Source: a virus (lineage: Duplodnaviria > Heunggongvirae > Uroviricota > Caudoviricetes). From it: a stretch of 48,404 bases of DNA. Below the pieces are notes generated by a model. That model did no database searches. It saw only the letters and a program-made list of their open reading frames with translations, and was not told the DNA's origin. The stretch lies in the IMG/VR virus record IMGVR_UViG_3300045988_155859; one strand, written 5' to 3'. A program made the translations under genes and the position numbers. Below, one piece after another: positions 1,246-48,004 of this stretch (its first letter is position 1; each line of letters begins with the position of its first letter).

Positions 1246-1410
1246 GGTGATAGTTCCCTTAAAGGTTAAGGATACTCACCACCGTCTGGTTCCAATCATT
1301 GGGTGGTGAGACGTACAGGGTTGGAACTACCGGTCACCATGGAATCCGGCGAGTCTTACGACTCCCCCGCACGCCCCACCATAATTTGGGTGTAGCAGTG
1401 CTTTACGCAT

Positions 1411-1430
1411 AAAAAAACCGCTAACGCGGT
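1411..1430 (-). terminator. Candidate intrinsic terminator (minus strand)
   Basis: Minus-strand hairpin ACCGC-GTTA-GCGGT followed by TTTTTTT; short stem. Confidence 0.35.
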
Positions 1431-1577
1431 ATGCGCCATGATGATTATCGGGGTTCCAATCCCGACCGTAGATTTTGCTACGGCTCGGAAAGTGTCCACC
1501 AATGGCGCATTCATGTCAATACGGCGGGATTTTAACAGAGATAACCACATAGCGTGGGTTTATTGGTAGGCAGAAAC

Positions 1578-1602: not shown

Positions 1603-2001
1603 TTCTTTCGTGCTGATCGGATTCGCGGTCCTTTCAGCATAACGTCGTTGTATAAACAACCACGCAAGCACAAGCAGCAAGTTAATTTTACCCAAAAGGT
1701 AATAATAGTCCACTATTATGCTTCAAAAAATTGTGGTTCTTGTTGTGCCTGCAAACTCACAGATTGTGGGTAGGTTACTGATTTTGTGAAAATAAACGAG
1801 TTTTTTCGTTTAATTTCTTTCCTATTACTAATCTTAAAATAATCGTAAAATACCTGTGGACCTTCCCGCCGATTCGCACCCGGGCACCGACTTTAGGGGA
1901 GGATTCTCCGTTGCCGTACATGCAAGCACAAGCAGCCGTGCTTGCTCTCGCGTTGTTTTCGTCGGTGGGGATGCCGTGAAACGGCCTGTAAGGGCCATAC
2001 A

Positions 2002-2124
2002 ATGAAAAAATACTGTATGTGTATTTTTATCGTTGTTACTGGGGCTTTGTTTACGCCACATGGGGAGGGTTGGAAGATTACTGATAACGCTCTGAATGTG
2101 ACGATAAACATTAGCAGCAAGTAG
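2002..2124 (+). CDS. Candidate small hydrophobic peptide (40 aa)
   Basis: MKKYCMCIFIVVTGALF... hydrophobic N-terminus, with a strong terminator immediately downstream; no recognisable family. Confidence 0.2.
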   Translation: MKKYCMCIFIVVTGALFTPHGEGWKITDNALNVTINISSK

Positions 2125-2129
2125 CGATT

Positions 2130-2153
2130 AGGCCCCTTCGGGGGCCTTTTTTA
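2130..2153 (+). terminator. Intrinsic terminator
   Basis: Perfect hairpin AGGCCCC-TTCG-GGGGCCT followed by TTTTTT. Confidence 0.7.
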
Positions 2154-2665: not shown

Positions 2666-3319
2666 TTACGCGGCAGTAGTCAGAGCCTCAAGCTGGTTGA
2701 TAATCCCCTGAATAACGTCGTCTGCCTTTTTGCGTGGCGCAACGTATGAGCATTCAATGAGGCTTAAGCCCTTATCCTGAGCTTTGCTCAGAGCTGGCTT
2801 GTGGGGAATGTACTTATCGACAACAAAGTATGGCGTATTAGCTAGGTACTCTTGGGCTTCAATGTAGTCGGCTTCGTTTTCAGCCGCGCCTGAGAACACC
2901 ATGCAAATTTTCTTGATTGGCACACCCTTTTTAACGATGCCGTGAGCTGTGTTAACGGTGGTTTCTAGGTCATCGGTAGAGAATCTGGTTGGCAAAATAA
3001 CCATATCCAGAAATTCAGAGAGCTTCGGTACTGATTCAGATGCGTAGGCACCGCCATCGACGATAACCAGGTCGTATACTTCTGATTCGATGATTTTCTG
3101 GACTTGTGATGGCGTGCCGCACGGCTGCGCCGCGATTGCAGGTTCGATATTGTTGGCCATTCTGCGTTGTACCCAACGCGTTACCGTTCCGTTAAGCACA
3201 TCCATATCGATCAGGCATACATTCCAGCCGGCCTTTGCATAAGCAACTGCTAAAGCACGGGCAATTGTTGATTTGGTTACGCCGCCTTTTCCGTTGAAAA
3301 TACCTACAGAGATAGTCAT
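2666..3319 (-). CDS. parF: ParF-like small ParA-family partition ATPase
   Basis: Deviant Walker A GKGGVTKST near the N-terminus and a length of about 217 aa. The second ATG (3319) has a GGAG RBS; the ORF track start at 3334 does not. Confidence 0.8.
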   Translation of the reverse strand: MTISVGIFNGKGGVTKSTIARALAVAYAKAGWNVCLIDMDVLNGTVTRWVQRRMANNIEPAIAAQPCGTPSQVQKIIESEVYDLVIVDGGAYASESVPKLSEFLDMVILPTRFSTDDLETTVNTAHGIVKKGVPIKKICMVFSGAAENEADYIEAQEYLANTPYFVVDKYIPHKPALSKAQDKGLSLIECSYVAPRKKADDVIQGIINQLEALTTAA

Positions 3320-3340
3320 TTGTCGAGACTCCATGTGTTT

Positions 3341-13736: not shown

Positions 13737-13812
13737 GGCCCCTTAGCTTAGTGGTTAGAGCAGGCGACTCATAATCGCACGGTCATCGGTTCAAATCCGG
13801 TAGGGGCCACCA
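13737..13812 (+). tRNA. tRNA with anticodon CAU (Met, or Ile if lysidine-modified)
   Basis: 76 nt folding by hand into a cloverleaf: 7-bp acceptor stem (GGCCCCT/AGGGGCC), D-arm GCTT...GAGC, anticodon loop CTCATAA, T-loop TTCAAAT, encoded CCA end. Confidence 0.8.
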
Positions 13813-14119: not shown

Positions 14120-14707
14120 ATGGAGGCAATTGCATTGTTTAATCTGATTTATGCAGATCCCCCCTGGGAATACAAAGATAAGTGTAAGGATGGGAATCGT
14201 GGAGCTGGTTTTAAGTATCCAACGATGAAAGCTGAGGATATTGCTCGTATTCCTGTCTGGCAGCTTGCTAATCCTGAATCGTGTTTGTTGGCCATGTGGT
14301 GGGTTCCGACTCAGCCAGAAGAAGCGTTGCTGGTGGTGAAAGCATGGGGATTCAGGCTTATGACCATGAAGGGCTTCACATGGAACAAATGTGGTAGCCG
14401 ACAACCAGATAAGCTGGTGATGGGGATGGGGCATATGACTCGTGCAAACAGTGAAGATTGCTTGTTTGCGGTAAAAGGCAAATTGCCGACCCGCCTTGAT
14501 GCGGGGATCATTCAGTCGTTTACATCGCCTCGTCTGGAGCATTCTCGGAAGCCTGATGTGGTTCGTGACAAGCTGGTAAGGCTGTTAGGTGATGTTCCTC
14601 GTATTGAGCTGTTTGCTCGCGGTGATTTACCTGATGGTTGGCATGGCTGGGGCAACCAGTGCAATGGAGGTATCCAGTTGCATGATGCTCTCTGGCAAGT
14701 GGCATAG
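14120..14707 (+). CDS. MT-A70-family DNA N6-adenine methyltransferase
   Basis: IYADPPWEY (DPPW catalytic motif) near the N-terminus; 195 aa. Confidence 0.8.
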   Translation: MEAIALFNLIYADPPWEYKDKCKDGNRGAGFKYPTMKAEDIARIPVWQLANPESCLLAMWWVPTQPEEALLVVKAWGFRLMTMKGFTWNKCGSRQPDKLVMGMGHMTRANSEDCLFAVKGKLPTRLDAGIIQSFTSPRLEHSRKPDVVRDKLVRLLGDVPRIELFARGDLPDGWHGWGNQCNGGIQLHDALWQVA

Positions 14708-16690: not shown

Positions 16691-17314
16691 ATGACAAAAC
16701 ATCTTAATGTGGTTTCTTTACCACTTTCTGTGTTGATTGGTTATGAAAAGAACGCTCGCACACACTCCGTGGAGCAGGTAGATCAGATTGTTGCCAGCAT
16801 ACAGGAGTACGGATGGACTAATCCGATCCTGATAGACGAGAACAACGTTGTAATTGCTGGTCATGGTCGAATTGCTGCGGCCACTCAGTTGGGGATGGAT
16901 GATGTTCCCTGCATTGTTCTGGCTGGGCTAACGGAGAATCAGAAGAAGGCATATCGTCTGGCCGACAACCGTATTCCGCTGAATGCTGGTTGGGATGAAG
17001 AGTTGTTAAGCGCGGAGCTTGCAGATCTTGCGGCCGATGATTTTGCTCTGGACTCAATTGGTTTTACTCAGCGCGAACTGGATAACTTATTGAGTGCGGC
17101 GGTCTACGATGACACAGAGGGTATGGATATCCCATTTGAGAAGGATGAGGCCAAATCAGGCGTAAAAGTTCAGTACCTGTCATTTGGAGGTCATAAAATC
17201 CCGGCAACGGATGAGGAAGCGGATCGTTTTGACTGCGCGGTGTCTCGTTATGTTGATGATAATGGTAGCTATATCGGATTTGTATCCGCATTGCTGGCTG
17301 GGGAGGTGTGCTGA
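16691..17314 (+). CDS. ParB/Srx-fold (ParB N-terminal domain) protein, paralogue 1
   Basis: ...NPILIDENNVVIAGHGRIAAA...QKKAYRLADN..., clearly paralogous to the 19981 ORF; no obvious partition-type HTH region. Confidence 0.65.
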   Translation: MTKHLNVVSLPLSVLIGYEKNARTHSVEQVDQIVASIQEYGWTNPILIDENNVVIAGHGRIAAATQLGMDDVPCIVLAGLTENQKKAYRLADNRIPLNAGWDEELLSAELADLAADDFALDSIGFTQRELDNLLSAAVYDDTEGMDIPFEKDEAKSGVKVQYLSFGGHKIPATDEEADRFDCAVSRYVDDNGSYIGFVSALLAGEVC

Positions 17315-18687
17315 TGCTTCACCTGAATTACGACATAACGCACCTACGCGGCGCGGAATATAACCCGCGTTTTATCGGTGAGGATGATCTTGCGAGGCTG
17401 GCGGAAAGCGTCAGGGAGCTGGGGCTTGTGAAGCCATTGATAGTGCGCGGCGATTTGCTGGTGGCGGGACACCAAAGGACGAAGGCGCTACGTAAGTTGG
17501 GAATAACGCGTGCTGCGGTGTATGTGTTGCCCTGTGAAACGACGGTATACGACGAAGTACGGTTTAACCAACTGCATAACGGAACGGATTTTGATAGCGG
17601 AGATGAGCGTTGCAGGGTGTCCGGTCTGGAAGATAAGCATGGTTTTGTTCAGGTATCGGCAAGCCAGATCTCAGGCAATATGCGCGCGAAAATGGCATAT
17701 GTTCGAAAGAACATAGCGGAACTGGTTATCAAGTATGGTCCGTGGGGTGGTTGTGTTGCTACTCAGTCTGGTGAGGTTATTCACTGTGCTCAGTATGCAT
17801 TAGCAGCGAAAATGACGCGCACACCGCTAACGGTGTTTGTGATCCCTGATGTTGAGAAGGAAAAATACCAAAGTTATCTGAATAAAACTTATGGTGTATT
17901 TGAGTATTCTCATCTGGAGAAAACAACATACATCCAGACGTATGCGCAGCTTATGCGGTTGCGTAATGGTGGCAGCCTGAAATCAAACCTGTATGAGTCG
18001 TTGATCCTCCCGATCATTGCCAAGACGCCAAGAGGAATTGATTTTGGTTCGGGGCAGGGAGACTACGCGCGAATGCTCAGGGCAAAGGGATATAACCTGC
18101 ATGATCTCGAGCTTTTCCGCCGTAAGGGCGCTGGAAACACTCTGGATAGGACCGCAACAAACCGGATGATTGATACGCTGGTGGACGACTTAAAAACGCG
18201 AGGGCGTTACGACTACGTGATTTGCGATAGCGTTTTGAACTCGGTCGATAGTGTCGAGGCTGAATGGTCTGTTCTGACGGTTCTGAAAGGCCTGTGTAAA
18301 GCTGGTGGGTCAATATTCTTTTCTGGTCGTAGCCGTGGAGAGCTGGAAACAGTCCTGAAGCAAACACAAGCGGCGAGTTCCAAAAGCCGGCTTTATTTTA
18401 TTGATCATAACGGTTTTACCGCGTTGTACCGGAAGGGGCACTGGTTTTACCAGAAGTTTCACTCTGATGATGAAGTGAAGCAGTTGTGTCGTGTACATGG
18501 TTTCAGGATTAAGCGGTCAATATTCAACTGTAAGAGCTGGTATTTGCACGTTATTAACGATGATTCTCTTCGCTGGGAGAGTCTGGAGAAAGCTGTTCGT
18601 TTTGAGTTTGAGTTGCCGTTGCCTGGTGGTTCAACAATCGGACGATCTGATGATGTGCTGGCGGCTTTCCGGCCGTTGATTAAGTAG
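17308..18687 (+). CDS. ParB/Srx-like N-terminal domain fused to a class I SAM-dependent methyltransferase domain
   Basis: N-terminal ...LIVRGDLLVAGHQRTKALRKLG...; C-terminal GIDFGSGQGDYARML (motif I) and YDYVICDSVLNSV; no DPPY/NPPY motif seen. Confidence 0.6.
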   Translation: MLMLHLNYDITHLRGAEYNPRFIGEDDLARLAESVRELGLVKPLIVRGDLLVAGHQRTKALRKLGITRAAVYVLPCETTVYDEVRFNQLHNGTDFDSGDERCRVSGLEDKHGFVQVSASQISGNMRAKMAYVRKNIAELVIKYGPWGGCVATQSGEVIHCAQYALAAKMTRTPLTVFVIPDVEKEKYQSYLNKTYGVFEYSHLEKTTYIQTYAQLMRLRNGGSLKSNLYESLILPIIAKTPRGIDFGSGQGDYARMLRAKGYNLHDLELFRRKGAGNTLDRTATNRMIDTLVDDLKTRGRYDYVICDSVLNSVDSVEAEWSVLTVLKGLCKAGGSIFFSGRSRGELETVLKQTQAASSKSRLYFIDHNGFTALYRKGHWFYQKFHSDDEVKQLCRVHGFRIKRSIFNCKSWYLHVINDDSLRWESLEKAVRFEFELPLPGGSTIGRSDDVLAAFRPLIK

Positions 18688-18703: not shown

Positions 18704-19423
18704 GTGGCTGACAGAATTGAGATAAAGATGGATTTTTCTTCTCAGGATATTCAACGACAACTCCAGCGCCTTGAAGAACGTGAATTGCCATTCGCAATGG
18801 CGCTTGCGGCAACCAGAACGGCAAAGGCTTCTCAGGCTGCGATTAAGAATGAAATTAATCGGGTATTTGACAGGCCCACGCCGTGGATTCAGAACTCTAC
18901 TTACGTTTTGGCCGCAAAGAAGAGTGATCCTACAGCCATTGTGTATGCTCGTGAATGGGGAGGAACGCCAGCCCCTGTAACGTTGACTCCGCAAATCGAA
19001 GGTGGCCAACGACAGTACAAACGCTCAGAAGGGGCGCTAAGGGCTGGTGGATATTTGCCTAACGGCTGGCAGCTTGCTCCTGGTCCCGGCGCAAAGCTGG
19101 ACAAATACGGGAATATTTCGCGGGGGCAATTACAGCAGGTCTTATCTGGCCTAAGAGTTCAGCGAGATGCGCATCAAAATCGCCGTCAGGGCAAGCCTAC
19201 GGAGTTTTTTGTTGTTCGACCTGGTACAAGTAACCCGCTTCAACCAGGCGTCTGGCAGCGCGTTGGGCGGCGTCCTACGTTGATCCTTACGTTTATCCAG
19301 CAACCTAACTATTCGCAGCGTCTTGATTGGCATGGCGTGGCGCTACGTGCTGGTGAGGATGCGTTTGCTGATGAAGTCACAAAGGCTATTGATGACATTC
19401 TTTCTAAGACGTTCTCTCGTTAA
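18704..19423 (+). CDS. Hypothetical protein
   Basis: GTG start with GTAGGAGG RBS; 239 aa. Confidence 0.45.
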   Translation: MADRIEIKMDFSSQDIQRQLQRLEERELPFAMALAATRTAKASQAAIKNEINRVFDRPTPWIQNSTYVLAAKKSDPTAIVYAREWGGTPAPVTLTPQIEGGQRQYKRSEGALRAGGYLPNGWQLAPGPGAKLDKYGNISRGQLQQVLSGLRVQRDAHQNRRQGKPTEFFVVRPGTSNPLQPGVWQRVGRRPTLILTFIQQPNYSQRLDWHGVALRAGEDAFADEVTKAIDDILSKTFSR

Positions 19424-19614
19424 TCATCGTGTGGTTGATGGTGTTGTTATGCAGGGTGTATTCACTGTGTTCTGTAGCGTCGCTCGCTGGCTGTCTGTGG
19501 GTGAGCACGAGCATCGTTTCATCGTCCGGCAGAATTGGGTCCTTCTGGCCAAAAGCGTTGGATGCGGGTCATTCGAACCCCGATGTTCGGCTAGCTAAAC
19601 GTGAAAAAAGTTAG

Positions 19615-19980
19615 GTTAAAAGTTGCGGTAAAAGAAATTTACTCATCTCATTGAAAAATATCGGGAAAACGTGATTTTTTGCTGTATTTGTGCTGGTAAA
19701 AAGAAAGTAGAAAATTTTCTTTTAGATCATCAAGATACGCGCAGATCTTTAACCAATGTGATGTTGTTCTGATAAAAATCGTTATAAATCATGCAAATAC
19801 ATCCAATCTTTTAACCAAAACACCATCGCAAGATCCTTTTTACTTATAAAAACTTAATAAAATCAGATAATTATGCTGGTTTGTGTGATTTTTTATGAGT
19901 AAAAAGATCGTCATTTTTCTCTTTTAGTATCAATAAGTTAAACAGTTTTCTTTAACCTGTTGTGTTATGGTGGTTAAAAA
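19615..19980. promoter_or_regulatory. AT-rich non-coding region with iterated AGATC and GTGATTTTTT motifs (candidate late promoter and/or packaging-site region)
   Basis: 366 bp without a convincing ORF; four GATC sites within 185 bp (19725, 19744, 19832, 19906), each as AGATC; GTGATTTTTT occurs twice; CTTTAACC three times. Confidence 0.4.
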
Positions 19981-20571
19981 ATGACTCTAAAAATCGAATA
20001 TTTACCAGTCGGTAAGCTGCTCAGATATGCCAAAAATTCACGGACTCATTCAGATGAGCAAGTTGAACAGTTGGTGAACAGTATCCGTGAGTTCGGTTTC
20101 ACTAATCCTGTGCTGATCGATGAAAAGAATGAACTGATTGCGGGGCATGGTCGGCTTGCAGCAGCCGAAATTCTGGAAATGGATAAAGTTCCGGCGATTC
20201 GGTTGAGTAACCTTTCTGAAAAACAGAAGAAGGCTTACAGGATTGCAGATAACAAGCTGGCCTTAAATGCTGGCTGGGATATGCAGCTTCTGGCCGAAGA
20301 AGTCAAAGAGTTAATGGATGATGATTTTGATATTGATCTGCTTGGGTTTAATGATGCAGAGCTTGACGAAATGTTAAGCGATGAACAGCCGCAGGAAGAA
20401 GACGATAATTCTTCCCCTGTTGTTCAAATTAAGTACCTGGCTATTGATAAAGAACGTATTCCCGCGACGGATATGGAAATTGCATTGTTGCTGGATGTTT
20501 ATCGTCAGTACCACGACGCGCATGAAACGCATGAGGGATTTGTTCAGTATCTTGCTAATGGTTGCAAGTAA
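19981..20571 (+). CDS. ParB/Srx-fold protein, paralogue 2, immediately upstream of the terminase genes
   Basis: ...NPVLIDEKNELIAGHGRLAAA...QKKAYRIADN..., paralogous to 16691-17314. Confidence 0.65.
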   Translation: MTLKIEYLPVGKLLRYAKNSRTHSDEQVEQLVNSIREFGFTNPVLIDEKNELIAGHGRLAAAEILEMDKVPAIRLSNLSEKQKKAYRIADNKLALNAGWDMQLLAEEVKELMDDDFDIDLLGFNDAELDEMLSDEQPQEEDDNSSPVVQIKYLAIDKERIPATDMEIALLLDVYRQYHDAHETHEGFVQYLANGCK

Positions 20572-21122
20572 TGGCCATCGTCAGTAAGTCAGAGTTTGCC
20601 CGCCGGAAAGGTATTTCTCCGGCAATGGTTACGAAGCTCTGTCGTTCCGGTCGCATTCCAGTGCTGAAAAGCGGCAAGCTGGATTTTGATAAAGCCAGTG
20701 CGGCTTATGAAGCGAGCCGACAGGTTGGTCGTGAGGTATCTGCTGAAAATGGAAAAAGAGGGCATGGGATATCTTCGGAACAACCAGAGTTACCCGCTGA
20801 TGATGCCGGATTAGCTGGTGGTACTTCCGGTGTTGCGGTGCAATTCAACAAGGCTAAGACCGCAGAAAAAATTTATCAGGCAAAGCTGAAACGCCTTGAA
20901 TTTGAAGAAAAGGAAGGCTCTCTCATCGCTAAAGATGCGGTCAGGGATGATGCATTTCTGGCAGCTAATGAATTGCGTAGCCGCTTATTTAGTATTGCTC
21001 CAAGAGCAGCTCCCCGTTGTGAAGGCAAAACAGCCAGGGAGATCGAGCGCATTATTGAAGACGAGATTAATTTTGCGCTTCAGGCGCTCCAGGAATCCCG
21101 ATTTATTAAGCAGGAAGAATAA
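20571..21122 (+). CDS. Terminase small subunit (lambda Nu1-like)
   Basis: N-terminal HTH-like SKSEFARRKGISPAMVTKLCRSGRIPV; directly upstream of the large subunit; ATG at 20571 preferred over the upstream TTG. Confidence 0.7.
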   Translation: MAIVSKSEFARRKGISPAMVTKLCRSGRIPVLKSGKLDFDKASAAYEASRQVGREVSAENGKRGHGISSEQPELPADDAGLAGGTSGVAVQFNKAKTAEKIYQAKLKRLEFEEKEGSLIAKDAVRDDAFLAANELRSRLFSIAPRAAPRCEGKTAREIERIIEDEINFALQALQESRFIKQEE

Positions 21123-21127
21123 ACCTC

Positions 21128-22984
21128 ATGGGCGAAACAGTATGGAGCACCGCTTTTTTCCGTGCGCTTCGCCCTAAATCACGGCTAACTGTTTCCGAAT
21201 GGGCTGATAAGTATCGTCATGTAGCGCCGGGAACGTCTCCAGAGCCAGGGCCGTGGCGTACAAGCCGAGTGCCATATTTGCGTGAACCAATGGATGTTAT
21301 TGGTGACGCTGATACAGAAACAGTAGTGATGCAATGTAGCTCGCAAATTGGTAAATCCGAATTACAGCTAAATGTTATGGGTTACTTTGCAGATCAGGAG
21401 CCATCTCCTCAGTTGATGATTTATCCAACGGTAGAGGCGGCTGAGGCTTTTTCAAAAGAGCGTATTGATCCGACGTTCAAATATTCCCCTGGTTTGAAAC
21501 ACAAGCTGCATGAAGGGAAAGAGGGGCGCGGTGCAGCCAAAAAGTCCAGCACGACTATACGTATGAAGCATTACGCTGGTGGATATATAGCACTTGTTGG
21601 TGCTAATTCCCCAGCAGGTCTTGCATCCAGGCCAATTCGAATACTGTTAGCTGATGAGATTGATCGTTACGGTGTGACGCAGGAGGGCGACCCACTAAAA
21701 CTAGGTATTCAGCGTACTACCAACTTTCATAATCGTAAGAAAGTTTTTGTTTCTACTCCTGTTTTGGAGGAAACAAGCAAAATCCACAAGTGGTTTAAGC
21801 TCTCCGATCAGCGTTACTACCATGTTCCTTGCCCATGTTGTGGCACCATGCAGGTGATGAAATGGTCGCAAGTCAGATGGGATAAGAGCGATTCAGGTGA
21901 GGCGTTACCGGAAACGGCCAGATATGAGTGCTGTGAGTGCGGCGGGATTATGCGCGGATCTGGTAAACCAGACGTTGATTGGTTGGCGAAGGGGGTATGG
22001 ATAGCTGAACATACTGGAGTTAAAGGTATTGTTGGTTTTCATATTAACAGTCTTTACTCCCCGTGGGTTGCATTGTCAGAGCTGGTTGAAGAATTTACGG
22101 AAGCAACCAGAAACCGCGATAAAAATGGATTAATGGAGTTTATTAACCTTAAGCTGGGTGAGCCATGGAAAGAGGATGCTAAAGACGATATCGATCCTGA
22201 ATACTTGTTGCAACGCAGAATAAGGTTTGAAGAGTTTTTACCAGATGATGTTTTATTGTTAAGTGCTGGTGTTGACGTACAGGACACGTATTTAGTTTGT
22301 GAATTGGTCGGTTGGGGAAAAGGTAAGGAGTCATGGGGGATAGAATATAAAATATTCCCAGGTGATCCCGCACAAGATGTTGTCTGGAAACAACTTGATG
22401 AATACTTACTCCGTAGCTGGTCATTCCGTGACGGTCGAAAATTACAGATTTCTTCCGTTTGTATTGACTCTGGTGGGCATTTTACGACAGAGGTATATCG
22501 CTTTACTAAGCCGAGAGAATCAAGGCGAATATACTCTATCAGGGGGCGTGGTGGGGTAGGTTTACCATTTATAGGAAAGCCAAGTAATAATAACCGTGTG
22601 GGTGCTATGTTGTTTAATTTGGGGGTTGATGATGGTAAAGGGACCATCATGGCAAGAATTAAACTACATGATCCTGGTCCTGGTTATATGCATTTCCCAT
22701 TAGATTCTGACAGAGGATATGATACCGAATACTTTAAAGGATTATTATCAGAGAAAAAAATATTTGAATATAAAAATGGGCAGACAAAAGAAAAGTGGGT
22801 GAAAGTCTACGAGCGTAACGAGCCTCTTGATTGCCGTAACTATGCAACTGCCGCGATGGAAATTCTGAACCCTAATTTTAACTGGCTTGCCGAACAGGAA
22901 ATGCGAGGTAATGTGTATGTGCAGAACTCGTCAGGTATACGTAGAAGACGCCGTAGAGTTATAAGTAAAGGCGTAACCATATAG
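21128..22984 (+). CDS. Terminase large subunit (lambda gpA-like)
   Basis: 618 aa; N-terminal VSEWADKYRHV...PGPWRTSRVPYLREPMD pattern as in gpA-type terminases; ATPase and nuclease-length regions. Confidence 0.85.
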   Translation: MGETVWSTAFFRALRPKSRLTVSEWADKYRHVAPGTSPEPGPWRTSRVPYLREPMDVIGDADTETVVMQCSSQIGKSELQLNVMGYFADQEPSPQLMIYPTVEAAEAFSKERIDPTFKYSPGLKHKLHEGKEGRGAAKKSSTTIRMKHYAGGYIALVGANSPAGLASRPIRILLADEIDRYGVTQEGDPLKLGIQRTTNFHNRKKVFVSTPVLEETSKIHKWFKLSDQRYYHVPCPCCGTMQVMKWSQVRWDKSDSGEALPETARYECCECGGIMRGSGKPDVDWLAKGVWIAEHTGVKGIVGFHINSLYSPWVALSELVEEFTEATRNRDKNGLMEFINLKLGEPWKEDAKDDIDPEYLLQRRIRFEEFLPDDVLLLSAGVDVQDTYLVCELVGWGKGKESWGIEYKIFPGDPAQDVVWKQLDEYLLRSWSFRDGRKLQISSVCIDSGGHFTTEVYRFTKPRESRRIYSIRGRGGVGLPFIGKPSNNNRVGAMLFNLGVDDGKGTIMARIKLHDPGPGYMHFPLDSDRGYDTEYFKGLLSEKKIFEYKNGQTKEKWVKVYERNEPLDCRNYATAAMEILNPNFNWLAEQEMRGNVYVQNSSGIRRRRRRVISKGVTI

Positions 22985-42821: not shown

Positions 42822-42861
42822 TATGATTGTGGGTGTCTGGTTGGAAAGTGACCAGATATGG

Positions 42862-42975
42862 AAACAAAAAGCCCGCAGATAAATCTGCGGGCTTCTTGCG
42901 ACATCCACGGAAAACCAACAACAACAATCCATGGGCGCCTCGACAACTCCCATTATACGTTGGTTTTCCGTGGAC
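42862..42975 (-). ncRNA. Candidate CopA-like antisense RNA over the repA leader
   Basis: Minus-strand terminator hairpin (11-bp stem AGCCCGCAGAT/ATCTGCGGGCT, 42870-42893) followed on the minus strand by a T-run; a 13-bp long-range inverted repeat (42904-42916 with 42962-42974) in the leader. Boundaries approximate; no promoter identified. Confidence 0.35.
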
Positions 42976-42989
42976 GCAAGAGCGAACAT

Positions 42990-43838
42990 ATGGATAGACC
43001 AATGCCGTCTCTACGTTCAGCTTACGTTTGTAATTTGTCGCCGGAGTTCCAGCCTCCAAAGCACCATACGCACAAGCTGCCGCTGGTGTTATCTGATGCT
43101 TTACAGCGCATTAATGGGCGTGATCTTACGTGTGAGGTTGCGTTCTACGTTAATCAACCGTCAGAGCGGAAGCGCCGGATAAACGAGCATCGTCGTCGGG
43201 CGATTAATGCTGTGATCGCTGCGATTTTGCACCATGTAAACATCATTTCTAAGCGGGTTCTGGCTAGTGCTGAGGCGTTGGCTGATTTTTGCGGCCTGTC
43301 TACCGTATCCGAAGCTGGGAACAAGTCTATAACGCGCTGTACAAGGGCGTTGTCGCAACTGAAAGCGTTAGGTTTTATTGATTATGAACGTCGCTGGGAT
43401 CGGGTGAATAAACAGTATTGGCCAGCGAAAATAGAGATTCGTGATCAACTGCTGGAAACCGTTGGTATTACTGAACAAGCATGGAGACGTGCGGTTAGCC
43501 AGAAACTTAATTACTTCAATGCGAAGAATAGCGAACGGCTTAAAAAAGCGATAACGGAGGCTGATTATAAGCGTATTGTTATTCAGGAGCAGATGGAGAA
43601 TGTATGGCGTCAGAGGAAGACGGCCAGAGAGATAAAGGCAAAACAGAAAGCAGCGGAGAGAGCTGCGCGTCTTGTTCGGGAAAAGGGAGAGGCCGAACTT
43701 CGTCATCAAATCACCAGAGAGGTTAGTCAGGAATTTGCTGATGGCATGTATCCTGGTGCTGACCTTGCATATTTACGATCCCTCGTTGAGCAGCGTTATA
43801 ACAGGTTAAGAAAGACCTGGAAATCACTCCAACATTAA
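42990..43838 (+). CDS. repA: Replication initiator RepA (IncFII RepA1-like)
   Basis: ...RRAINAVIAAILHHVNI...CGLSTVSEAGNKSITRCTRALSQLKALGFIDYE... parallels R100 RepA1 as I recall it. Start set at the Met where the similarity begins; the frame is open upstream to 42858. Confidence 0.75.
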   Translation: MDRPMPSLRSAYVCNLSPEFQPPKHHTHKLPLVLSDALQRINGRDLTCEVAFYVNQPSERKRRINEHRRRAINAVIAAILHHVNIISKRVLASAEALADFCGLSTVSEAGNKSITRCTRALSQLKALGFIDYERRWDRVNKQYWPAKIEIRDQLLETVGITEQAWRRAVSQKLNYFNAKNSERLKKAITEADYKRIVIQEQMENVWRQRKTAREIKAKQKAAERAARLVREKGEAELRHQITREVSQEFADGMYPGADLAYLRSLVEQRYNRLRKTWKSLQH

Positions 43839-47121: not shown

Positions 47122-47382
47122 ATGACGGGTTACGAATTGAAATTATGGCGTCGTGGGATGAACTGGACGCAGGAGCGAGCCGCCGAAGAGTTTGGGATAT
47201 CGTTGGCTACATATAAGCGATATGAGAAGGGTGAGCCGCCGAGGGTCATTGAGATGGCCATTCGCGTTCTGTCGTTTGACGATATGGTTAAGGATCTTTC
47301 ACACCTTGATAAAGATGTGATTCTGTTAAGGCTGCAAACCCTTGTATGGGAAAAGGTTAAAGTGTCGTCAGAATTGGAATAA
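47122..47382 (+). CDS. HTH (XRE-type) DNA-binding protein
   Basis: ...WTQERAAEEFGISLATYKRYEKG...; divergent from the 46595-47020 gene. Confidence 0.5.
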   Translation: MTGYELKLWRRGMNWTQERAAEEFGISLATYKRYEKGEPPRVIEMAIRVLSFDDMVKDLSHLDKDVILLRLQTLVWEKVKVSSELE

Positions 47383-47442
47383 GGGATCAAATGATCCTTT
47401 ACGGATCGTTTTATGGTGGTGTAATGTAAGCGCCAGAAAGAC

Positions 47443-47467
47443 AAAAACCGCCTTGCCGGGCGGTTTT
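47443..47467. terminator. Candidate bidirectional intrinsic terminator
   Basis: AAAACCGCC-TTGCCG-GGCGGTTTT: GC stem flanked by A-run and T-run. Confidence 0.5.
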
Positions 47468-48004
47468 CAGTCTGAAATTTAAATCTTGCTTGGTAGGCTG
47501 GATTTAAAAAGACACCTCTTGATTGGGGCGGCTTTCTTGCGTCTAAAGATAATCAAATCTTTTTGCGCCTGCAACCCCTTTTTTACTGGTGCCCATTTCA
47601 GACTCACGCTCGCGTCGTTGTCTTTGCCACTTCGTTGGGTTCGGTGTTTTTGGGCGAAGTGGCGCGCGGGTATGCGTACAAGGGGAAAGTGTGCTGACGC
47701 AAGCCAGGAACAGCGATCTAAACTAAGTCGAGTCTGAGAAAGGCAGGAGTGCGACAACTCGCCTGTGCTCTATGAGCAGAAGAAGGTATATCAGACGACC
47801 AATGGCATGATTGTGGGCCACAGGGCGCACACGGCGGCGAAGCATTGGAAACAATGTGGAGCTATCTGGTGGCATGAGTTCCGGTACTCGATCTCGAGCT
47901 TTTTTTGATGCTTTTGAGAAGGGGCCGGAACTCCGGTAAAGGGCACCCTGTATGGGGGGAGGGGGGGGTGTGTCTGAAGGGTGGTTATCGGTTATGGTGG
48001 AATT

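Follow-up and report, generated by a model that had tools for sequence, protein, structure and literature searches.

What is the function of the AT-rich, motif-laden stretch at positions 19615-19980 that lies directly upstream of the genes for a ParB-like protein and for the small and large terminase subunits (TerS and TerL) in IMG/VR virus record IMGVR_UViG_3300045988_155859? The DNA of this record (Caudoviricetes), which was analysed over its full length of 48,404 bp and is called the window below, is essentially a complete phage-plasmid. A sequence-only reading had noticed clustered GATC sites and iterated motifs in the stretch and had offered two explanations, a methylation-sensitive promoter or part of the packaging recognition site. 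We consider the second to be probably right: the stretch appears to be the cosB-like terminase-recognition arm of a lambda-type cohesive-end site (cos), the cut point of which lies approximately 40 bp to the left. The same reading gave the gap before the ParB-like gene as 366 bp (19615-19980). This DNA is indeed non-coding; however, its left boundary is the end of a spurious open reading frame (19429-19614, 61 codons) with no family matches. The true non-coding gap is 19424-19980 (557 bp), and the cosQ/cosN core at its left had been missed. This part of the gap contains the following elements:

19537-19543, plus strand: cosQ-like heptamer GGGTCCT, 30 nt 5' of the left nick, identical to lambda in heptamer and spacing
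19567-19578, plus strand: predicted cosN with the 12-nt cohesive-end sequence GGTCATTCGAAC, nicked before 19567 (top strand) and after 19578 (bottom strand)
19579-19613, plus strand: CCCGATGTTCGGCTAGCTAAACGTGAAAAAAGTTA, a conserved block to the right of cosN and placed like the I2 segment of lambda

The heptamer GGGTCCT is reported to be the cosQ of lambda (Wieczorek and Feiss 2001). In the window and in the lambda genome (NC_001416) alike its distance to the left nick is exactly 30 nt, so that a putative 7-bp cosQ 5' of cosN is found both by sequence and by spacing. With the nicks marked by slashes, lambda reads ACGGGTCCTTTCCGG...TTACG/GGGCGGCGACCT and the window TTGGGTCCTTCTGG...ATGCG/GGTCATTCGAAC; with the ends joined, the two sequences are ACGGGTCCTTTCCGGTGATCCGACAGGTTACG/GGGCGGCGACCT/CGCGGGTTTTCGCTA and TTGGGTCCTTCTGGCCAAAAGCGTTGGATGCG/GGTCATTCGAAC/CCCGATGTTCGGCTAGCTA, respectively. 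Both have a 12-nt cohesive end that is preceded by a CG and followed by a C.CG..TTTCG.CTA block, whereas the cohesive ends themselves differ (GGGCGGCGACCT in lambda, GGTCATTCGAAC in the window). In lambda, cos consists of cosQ, cosN and a 120-bp cosB with the TerS sites R3, R2 and R1 and a site for integration host factor (IHF), I1, between R3 and R2 (Feiss et al., PMC4669245); cosQ is a highly conserved 7-bp site, and conserved CG dinucleotides flank the nicks (PMC4669245). Cos sites of this type are also found in phages 21, phi80, N15 and Gifsy-1.

Conservation was assessed in Salmonella phage-plasmids and IMG/VR relatives, which provided 24 distinct versions of the gap from three lineages (single loci are denoted below by L and a number). 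GGGTCCT is invariant in these 24 relatives and is also present in Vibrio phages XM1, X29 and Rostov 7; the first 10 positions of the 12-mer GGTCATTCGAAC are likewise invariant across the 24. The pattern CCCG...TTCG.CTAGCT within 19579-19613, which resembles lambda CGCGGGTTTTCGCTA, is common to the Salmonella, L047, L050 and Vibrio relatives. From these sequence comparisons we conclude that 19537-19543 is the putative cosQ and 19567-19578 the putative cosN.

As to the genome ends, the records of Yersinia phages vB_YpM_41 and vB_YpM_39, ~99% identical to the window, begin at the position corresponding to 19567 (GGTCATTCGAAC CCCG...), and that of vB_YpM_44, also ~99% identical, begins at 19579, exactly 12 nt further on, and ends with ...GCGGGTCATTCGAAC. 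Vibrio phages X29, phi 2, Rostov 7, XM1 and others, whose TerS is 42% identical, have the same ParB-like/TerS/TerL synteny, and their linear records start at the homologous sequence, ~140 bp 5' of the ParB-like gene. They share with the window the core GGGTCCT...GCG/GGTGCTCGCGAC/CCCG..TTTCGTCTAGCTA, with a repeat array directly after it. The XM1 record begins with GGTGCTCGCGAC/CCCGCGTTTCGTCTAGCTA and ends with ...GAGCG/GGTGCTCGCGAC(A), i.e., the homologous 12-mer stands at both of its ends, which fits a 5' overhang filled in at library preparation; it is from this duplication that we infer a probable 5' polarity of the overhang in the phage studied here. X29 was reported to have defined ends by read coverage (PMC5690320). 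Its record breaks at the homologous junction, and the permuted record of Rostov 7 shows this junction uninterrupted. No cos site or repeats are described in the papers on the Vibrio phages (PMC11432961, PMC5690320). In Acinetobacter phage HFM1 (TerS 35% identical) an 11-nt 5' cohesive end is annotated via PhageTerm, and TerS is encoded from base 183. A pattern scan of viral contigs for those ending at cosN gave 29 matches, all of them internal and mostly in bacterial assemblies, and hence no independent evidence on ends. We judge, indirectly and from the records of relatives, that defined 12-nt ends are probably present. The sequence-only reading had proposed the mapping of virion ends as a check; the ends of the relatives speak for it in spirit, although they fall ~36-48 bp left of the coordinates that it had flagged, which makes the flagged stretch a recognition arm and not the cut site. 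As the stretch starts 36 nt right of cosN and runs to the first gene of the packaging operon, it occupies the position of cosB.

The genes that follow it are these:

19981-20571, plus strand: ParB/Srx N-terminal-domain protein, 196 aa (Pfam ParB_N 3.8e-8, phrog_620), between cosB and terS
20571-21122, plus strand: TerS, 183 aa (phrog_57, 1.4e-41)
21128-22984, plus strand: TerL of the lambda gpA family (Pfam GpA_ATPase 7e-76, GpA_nuclease 1e-84)

Over ~600 aa, TerL shares 28% identity with lambda gpA (E 2e-62), so that the adjoining packaging genes include a gpA-family large subunit, as in lambda. In the AlphaFold2 model of TerS, residues 1-50 (pLDDT ~90) form a winged helix-turn-helix, residues 53-84 a disordered linker, and the C-terminal part is helical. 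The ~55 N-terminal residues superpose on the winged helix-turn-helix domains of MerR, Xis, RacA and BldC and also resemble a chain of 6hn7, from a study of packaging redirection by phage-inducible chromosomal islands; the target-normalised TM-scores are 0.5-0.7 in both cases, with weak E-values. A profile search with TerS pointed to the helix-turn-helix of P2 Cox (E 0.026). The DNA-binding domain of lambda Nu1 is of the same class (MerR/Xis-type) as this winged helix. A small subunit homologous to gpNu1, which is a part of the lambda-type system, is not found here: the predicted system would work like that of lambda, yet its TerS is, as judged by sequence, outside the Nu1 family.

The arm itself carries approximately nine sites of the GGTWAAAAG type, in both orientations, over ~400 bp:

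19614-19622, plus strand: S1, GGTTAAAAG, 48 nt from the left nick, approximately at the position of lambda R3; 100% conserved, the most conserved site
19627-19634, plus strand: S2, GGTAAAAG; 90% conserved
19695-19703, plus strand: S3, GGTAAAAAG; an island of 91% conservation with diverged flanks
19746-19754, minus strand: S4, GGTTAAAGA (listed also as TCTTTAACC), the first CTTTAACC repeat of the sequence-only reading; 89% conserved as TTTAACC/TTTTACC
19808-19816, minus strand: S5, GGTTAAAAG (listed also as CTTTTAACC); 69% conserved, the weakest; TTTTTTTACTCA in Salmonella
19831-19843, minus strand: S6, AGATCCTTTTTAC, which includes GATC 19832 and is the left arm of an inverted repeat; 93% conserved
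19861-19873, plus strand: IHF-consensus site AATCAGATAATTA (WATCARNNNNTTR), flanked by S6 and S7 as inverted arms
19899-19909, plus strand: S7, GTAAAAAGATC, which includes GATC 19906 and is the right arm of this repeat; 98% conserved
19949-19957, minus strand: S8, GGTTAAAGA (listed also as TCTTTAACC), the second CTTTAACC repeat; 89% conserved
19972-19980, plus strand: S9, GGTTAAAAA, a questionable binding site, as it overlaps the ribosome-binding region of the ParB-like gene

The gap alignment is almost free of indels but diverged, with conserved islands. In representatives of the three lineages the positions of the sites and of the IHF consensus are 88% identical to the window versus 54% elsewhere, a contrast that was never reached when equally sized blocks were placed at random 5000 times. 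It is this conservation that decides in favour of the motifs being real. The TerS proteins of the Salmonella phage-plasmids are 88% and 64% identical to that of the window (tblastn), the latter value being from a copy with an in-frame stop. S8 reads CTTTTACC in Salmonella, an A/T swap that keeps the GGTWAAAG consensus. The arms of the S6/S7 inverted repeat, GATCCTTTTTAC and GATCTTTTTAC, flank the IHF-consensus site, one of 11 matches to this consensus in the window and of two in the flagged region; its AATAAAATCAG..AATTATG is conserved in all three lineages, whereas the second match (19928-19940) is not conserved. The repeats and the IHF site that lambda has between cosN and the terminase genes have here a candidate counterpart in sequence anatomy, and this anatomy is conserved: the arm lies between cosN and the packaging genes, its repeats are in both orientations, the IHF consensus is inside an inverted pair, as in R3-I1-R2, and the first site, ~48 nt from the nick, is near the place of R3. 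The differences from lambda are also considerable. The cosB of lambda has 120 bp and three sites, against ~400 bp and about nine sites in the window; the site of the window, GGTWAAAAG, is not the R sequence of lambda, and its TerS has no detectable relation to Nu1; a ParB/Srx-like gene lies between cosB and terS; and the host element is a myovirus-type phage-plasmid with RepA and ParA.

The AT-richness and the repeats that had drawn attention to the stretch were confirmed. Its GC content is 28% versus 44.6% for the window; GTGATTTTTT occurs at 19671 and 19885, and CTTTAACC at 19747 and 19950. The shorter TTTAACC has three copies (19748, 19810 and 19951), and GGTTAAAA, its reverse complement, has two (19614 and 19972), which makes five over both orientations. 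In first-order Markov simulations of 19580-19985 the five occurrences of GGTTAAA on both strands represent a large excess over the expected 0.12. We rejected GTGATTTTTT as a functional repeat, since neither copy is conserved. At the place of the second one Salmonella has a CTTTTACC site, palindromic with the following GGGTAAAAAG, and L047 has GTGATTTGTTAACC; judging from the alignment, the second copy in the window looks like a decayed site. The periodicity of AA/TT dinucleotides in the stretch peaks at 10.5-10.75 bp, which is weak evidence for intrinsically bent DNA.

In more distant relatives the architecture is kept while the repeated sequence is lineage-specific, with GTTAAC-type arrays at the matching position. 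The most constant feature is the first site, ~36-48 nt after cosN, and the counterparts of S1 are TTAGGTTAA in L047 and L050 and AGTTAACAC in the Vibrio phages. In L047 (TerS 57% identical) cosN, GGTCATTCGTAC, is followed by TTAGGTTAACAAA and two more sites of the GGTTAACAAA type (three in all) and then by about nine copies of TTTGTTAACC over ~570 bp, several of them preceded by AATCA....ATTA elements. The array of the Vibrio phages, unlike that of the window, is compact, consisting of five direct GGTTAACA(C/G)TT repeats in ~100 bp, in a single orientation and with no GATC. L050 has a recognisable cosN block, TTAGGTTAACGC, with ~70 bp from there to the ParB-like gene, and carries TTAGGTTAAC; the Methyloprofundus locus has GTTAACAC repeats. 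In HFM1, inverted repeats of the GTTAA type stand directly before TerS, with no ParB-like gene between cos and TerS. A profile scan of genome contigs with the TerS alignment yielded only five distant loci, one of which (L019) was useful.

Two observations on these loci may be added. At 1400-1900 of L047 (IMGVR_UViG_640753048_000002) the arm is made of units of ~60-70 bp repeated several times, each with A-rich AATCA....ATTA and GATTTGTTAACC, which suggests that it grew via tandem duplication of a paired module of a bend site and a TerS site. In L054 (2501-3060 of IMGVR_UViG_2880350357_000007) and L013 (3001-3543) TerS has frameshifts or an in-frame stop while the cos regions are intact; these lesions are either sequencing errors or signs of decaying phage-plasmids. 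L054, with a TerS seemingly 48% identical and an identical cosB, had been considered as a test of which protein binds the sites, and was dropped because its copy is frameshifted.

The homology and spacing of cosQ and cosN, the terminase family, the conservation of the sites and the genome-end positions of relatives are the observations on which the following mechanism is built, while the identity of the binding protein and the role of IHF in it we infer. The gpA-type TerL would nick cosN with a 12-nt stagger, producing the cohesive end GGTCATTCGAAC. The winged-helix N-terminal domains of TerS would bind the GGTWAAAAG-type sites, and IHF together with phased A-tracts would bend the DNA. The resulting complex would set TerL on cosN, and packaging would run rightwards into the side of the ParB-like, terS and terL genes, with cosQ acting in termination at the next cos on the concatemer. 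In this case the CTTTAACC repeats would be copies of the binding site and two of the GATC would be flanks of two sites, the other two GATC and GTGATTTTTT being lineage-specific sequence.

Several points weigh against assigning the stretch to a cosB-like arm. The cos ends are deduced from the records of relatives and not from virions of the element in the window, and the Yersinia records are flagged as circular, the basis of the chosen start not being stated in them. By sequence, TerS does not resemble lambda Nu1 (BLASTP E 0.4) and has no Phage_Nu1 Pfam match, and its fold matches have E-values of 0.3 or more. Some of the site boundaries were drawn after the alignment had been seen, which inflates the conservation contrast. 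A post-hoc test for any 7-mer occurring at least five times gives only P ~0.1, i.e., repetition alone is borderline in such AT-rich DNA, and the null for the dinucleotide periodicity, mononucleotide shuffles, is lenient. Finally, with ~400 bp the arm is three to four times as long as lambda cosB or its equivalent in the Vibrio phages, and may therefore have other roles too, for instance as a late promoter that depends on an activator or in binding the ParB-like protein.

The explanation which survives best among the others, although we regard it as unlikely, is that the stretch is the late promoter or regulatory region of the ParB-like/terS/terL operon, made Dam-dependent by the GATC cluster. 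A long late operon of co-directional genes does begin directly 3' of it, the phage's own DNA methyltransferases are encoded just upstream, and the cluster described in the sequence-only reading is real: sites at 19725, 19744, 19832 and 19906, each of them AGATC (in the hexamers AGATCA, AGATCT, AGATCC and AGATCG), span exactly 185 bp. The excess of GATC in 19580-19985 is modest (four versus 0.82 expected, P=0.013 in the Markov simulations), and AGATC, with 0.22 expected, got to four in none of 2000 simulations. One other place in the window, 47220-47477, has four GATC in 185 bp; these are at about 47293, 47385, 47393 and 47405, three of them within ~25 bp (GGGATCAAATGATCCTTTACGGATCG), in a short intergenic region followed by a terminator-like hairpin.

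However, the number of GATC in the gap varies from one to five among the 24 distinct relatives. The mutually nearest pair, 19725 and 19744, is restricted to the E. coli lineage, except for one of the two in L028, and is missing in the L011-type Salmonella lineage; GATC 19744, in the flank of S4, is not conserved, unlike S4 itself, and Salmonella has a different extra GATC beside S1. The two that are kept in most relatives, 19832 (21 of 24) and 19906 (18 of 24; lost in L030, L036, L040, L049, L054 and L003, the window-type ATCC copy), are in the flanks of S6 and S7, i.e., inside the repeated site motif and not in a recognisable -10 or -35 hexamer. The Vibrio counterpart segment, as read in the left-end sequences, has zero GATC. 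From these comparisons, the cluster as such is not a conserved property, and at most two GATC are part of an extended site sequence. Within 19300-20100 no sigma-70-like promoter with at least 9 of 12 matches was found (2.1 expected in shuffles), and a relaxed scan gave at best 8 of 12, with poor -35 or -10 hexamers, such scans being blind to activator-dependent promoters. No terminator was found in the same interval between the upstream genes and the operon, so that lambda-style read-through across cos is possible. Conserved GATC over a promoter or a regulator site, which one would expect of a Dam-regulated promoter, are therefore not seen, and the methylation-sensitive promoter of the sequence-only reading finds no support, while its mention of a packaging recognition site is borne out by the adjoining lambda-like cosQ and cosN, the cosB position, the conserved iterated sites and the IHF consensus. 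An activator-dependent promoter is possible, as the extra length of the arm compared with the Vibrio phages leaves room for it, and in those phages a hairpin and TATAAT 5' of cosQ, read from sequence, indicate that their packaging operons probably need their own promoter near cos. PHROG annotation of the genes at 9-16.5 kb, where a late regulator was sought, returned only families with function unassigned.

As for the right ends of XM1 (L014) and X29 (L015), their last ~150 bp contain, just 5' of cosQ, a conserved TTTATAAT box and a hairpin with a T-run that resembles a terminator, and XM1 has more GTTAACGCC copies left of cosQ. The late promoter of the Vibrio relatives may sit 5' of cos, with transcription crossing cos.

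Clustered GATC beside packaging genes recall the pac site of phage P1, and two of those in the window flank the centre of the element symmetrically. P1 pac is said, from Sternberg's work, to comprise seven TGATCA/G hexamers, with PacA/PacB and headful packaging of terminally redundant DNA. Unlike it, the window has a gpA-type terminase, presumably defined ends, AGATCN flanks and a GATC number that varies from one to five among relatives. A conserved cluster of TGATCA/G is not present, only two of the four GATC being widely conserved, and headful packaging is not indicated either, as the relatives have defined ends and the terminase is of the cos type.

That the sites are bound not by TerS but by the adjacent ParB/Srx-like protein, serving as a parS-like loading site for an accessory factor of packaging, for a nuclease or for a module that targets the phage methyltransferases, seems to us quite improbable. 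In the E. coli, Salmonella, L047, L050, Methyloprofundus and Vibrio relatives a gene with ParB_N separates the array from terS, and two further ParB_N paralogues, one of them fused to a methyltransferase, are located just 5' of cos. However, structure comparison matches only the N-terminal (CTP-binding/nuclease-like) domain of the 19981-20571 product with ParB/Noc, and no helix-turn-helix DNA-binding domain was detected in this protein, whereas TerS has a predicted N-terminal winged helix. In HFM1 the GTTAA-type repeats stand beside TerS without an intervening ParB-like gene, which favours TerS over the ParB-like protein as the binder. Nor does the locus resemble a ParB-parS centromere: besides the single N-terminal domain, ParA is encoded far away (2666-3334, minus strand), and the sites are not 16-bp palindromes.

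Three ParB/Srx N-terminal-domain paralogues, one of them methyltransferase-fused (phrog_5475), and an MT-A70-type DNA methyltransferase bracket the cos (16691-17314, 17308-18687, 19981-20571 and 14120-14707). ParB_N or ParB_N-methyltransferase genes adjoin TerS in the distant loci L052 and L019 too.

A replication origin or DNA-unwinding element like oriC or P1 oriR, which the 28% GC, the GATC enrichment, the iterated short motifs and the replication of the element as a plasmid might suggest, is highly improbable, since the DnaA boxes or iterons near an initiator gene that mark such origins are not found (no DnaA box in the stretch even with one mismatch; repA at 42858-43838, 23 kb away), a like array architecture is at the physical ends of the Vibrio phages and HFM1, deposited as linear virion genomes, and in every relative the array holds the same place with respect to cosN and the terminase genes.

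Of 5,426 complete E. coli genomes, 72, that of ATCC 25922 included, contain plasmids of ~47-52 kb to which the flagged region with its flanks is 97-99.8% identical; the other matches are three Yersinia pestis phages (vB_YpM_39, _41 and _44) and two partial Escherichia phage records. In RefSeq the ATCC 25922 copy is annotated with RepA, ParA, an XRE repressor, lysis genes, methyltransferases and a myovirus tail module. The genes from ~4.8 kb to 41.9 kb of the window are all co-directional. Those 3' of the flagged region encode, one after the other, the ParB_N-domain protein, TerS and TerL, and then a head-tail adaptor, a portal of the lambda family and a protease of the ClpP type, the last three being in the order known from lambda.

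Just 5' of cos (18704-19423) a 239-aa protein is encoded that has no Pfam or NCBIfam match; its phrog_1924 match is labelled 'minor tail protein', and one Salmonella plasmid has a homologue with the annotation glycosyltransferase. For a gene in this position the two labels look doubtful. An Rfam scan of the whole window gave no match within 19424-19980. It matched a C4 antisense RNA (P1-type), isrK and ryfA at 1299-1386 (minus strand), 1411-1484 (minus strand) and 1856-2152 (plus strand), a set which suggests a P1/P7-like immI-type immunity region in the phage-plasmid. A tRNA scan prompted by the T-arm-like GGGTCATTCGAACCC found no tRNA there. The tRNA at 13737-13812 is called tRNA-Met (anticodon CAT) by ARAGORN and tRNA-Ile in the RefSeq annotation of the ATCC 25922 copy; it is presumably a lysidine-modified tRNA-Ile2.

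As to the meaning of the predicted cos, it is most likely an ordinary kind of phage packaging signal, new for this family of E. coli phage-plasmids, and the understanding of cos packaging is unchanged by it. In the literature on the vB_YpM phages, XM1 and the ATCC 25922 phage-plasmids we found no description of a cos for this family, and a search for the 12-mers and their complements returned no relevant paper. A more speculative thought, to which we give little credence, is that the long cosB serves as a platform for three proteins, where the ParB/Srx-like protein would load at the array as a third factor and methylation of the two conserved GATC would gate the cleavage of cos. If this is true, gating by GATC methylation (by Dam or by the phage methyltransferases) could tell lytically replicating DNA apart from the copy that resides as a plasmid.

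Vibrio myoviruses whose TerS is unrelated in sequence to Nu1 also turn out to have the cosQ-cosN core of lambda, with precisely the same spacing of 30 nt. For the widespread ~48 kb phage-plasmids of E. coli and Salmonella, the analysis locates the probable cohesive-end site, with a predicted end, GGTCATTCGAAC, and a map of putative terminase sites, which could be used in the annotation of such elements, in predicting transducible DNA, in cosmid building and in packaging assays.

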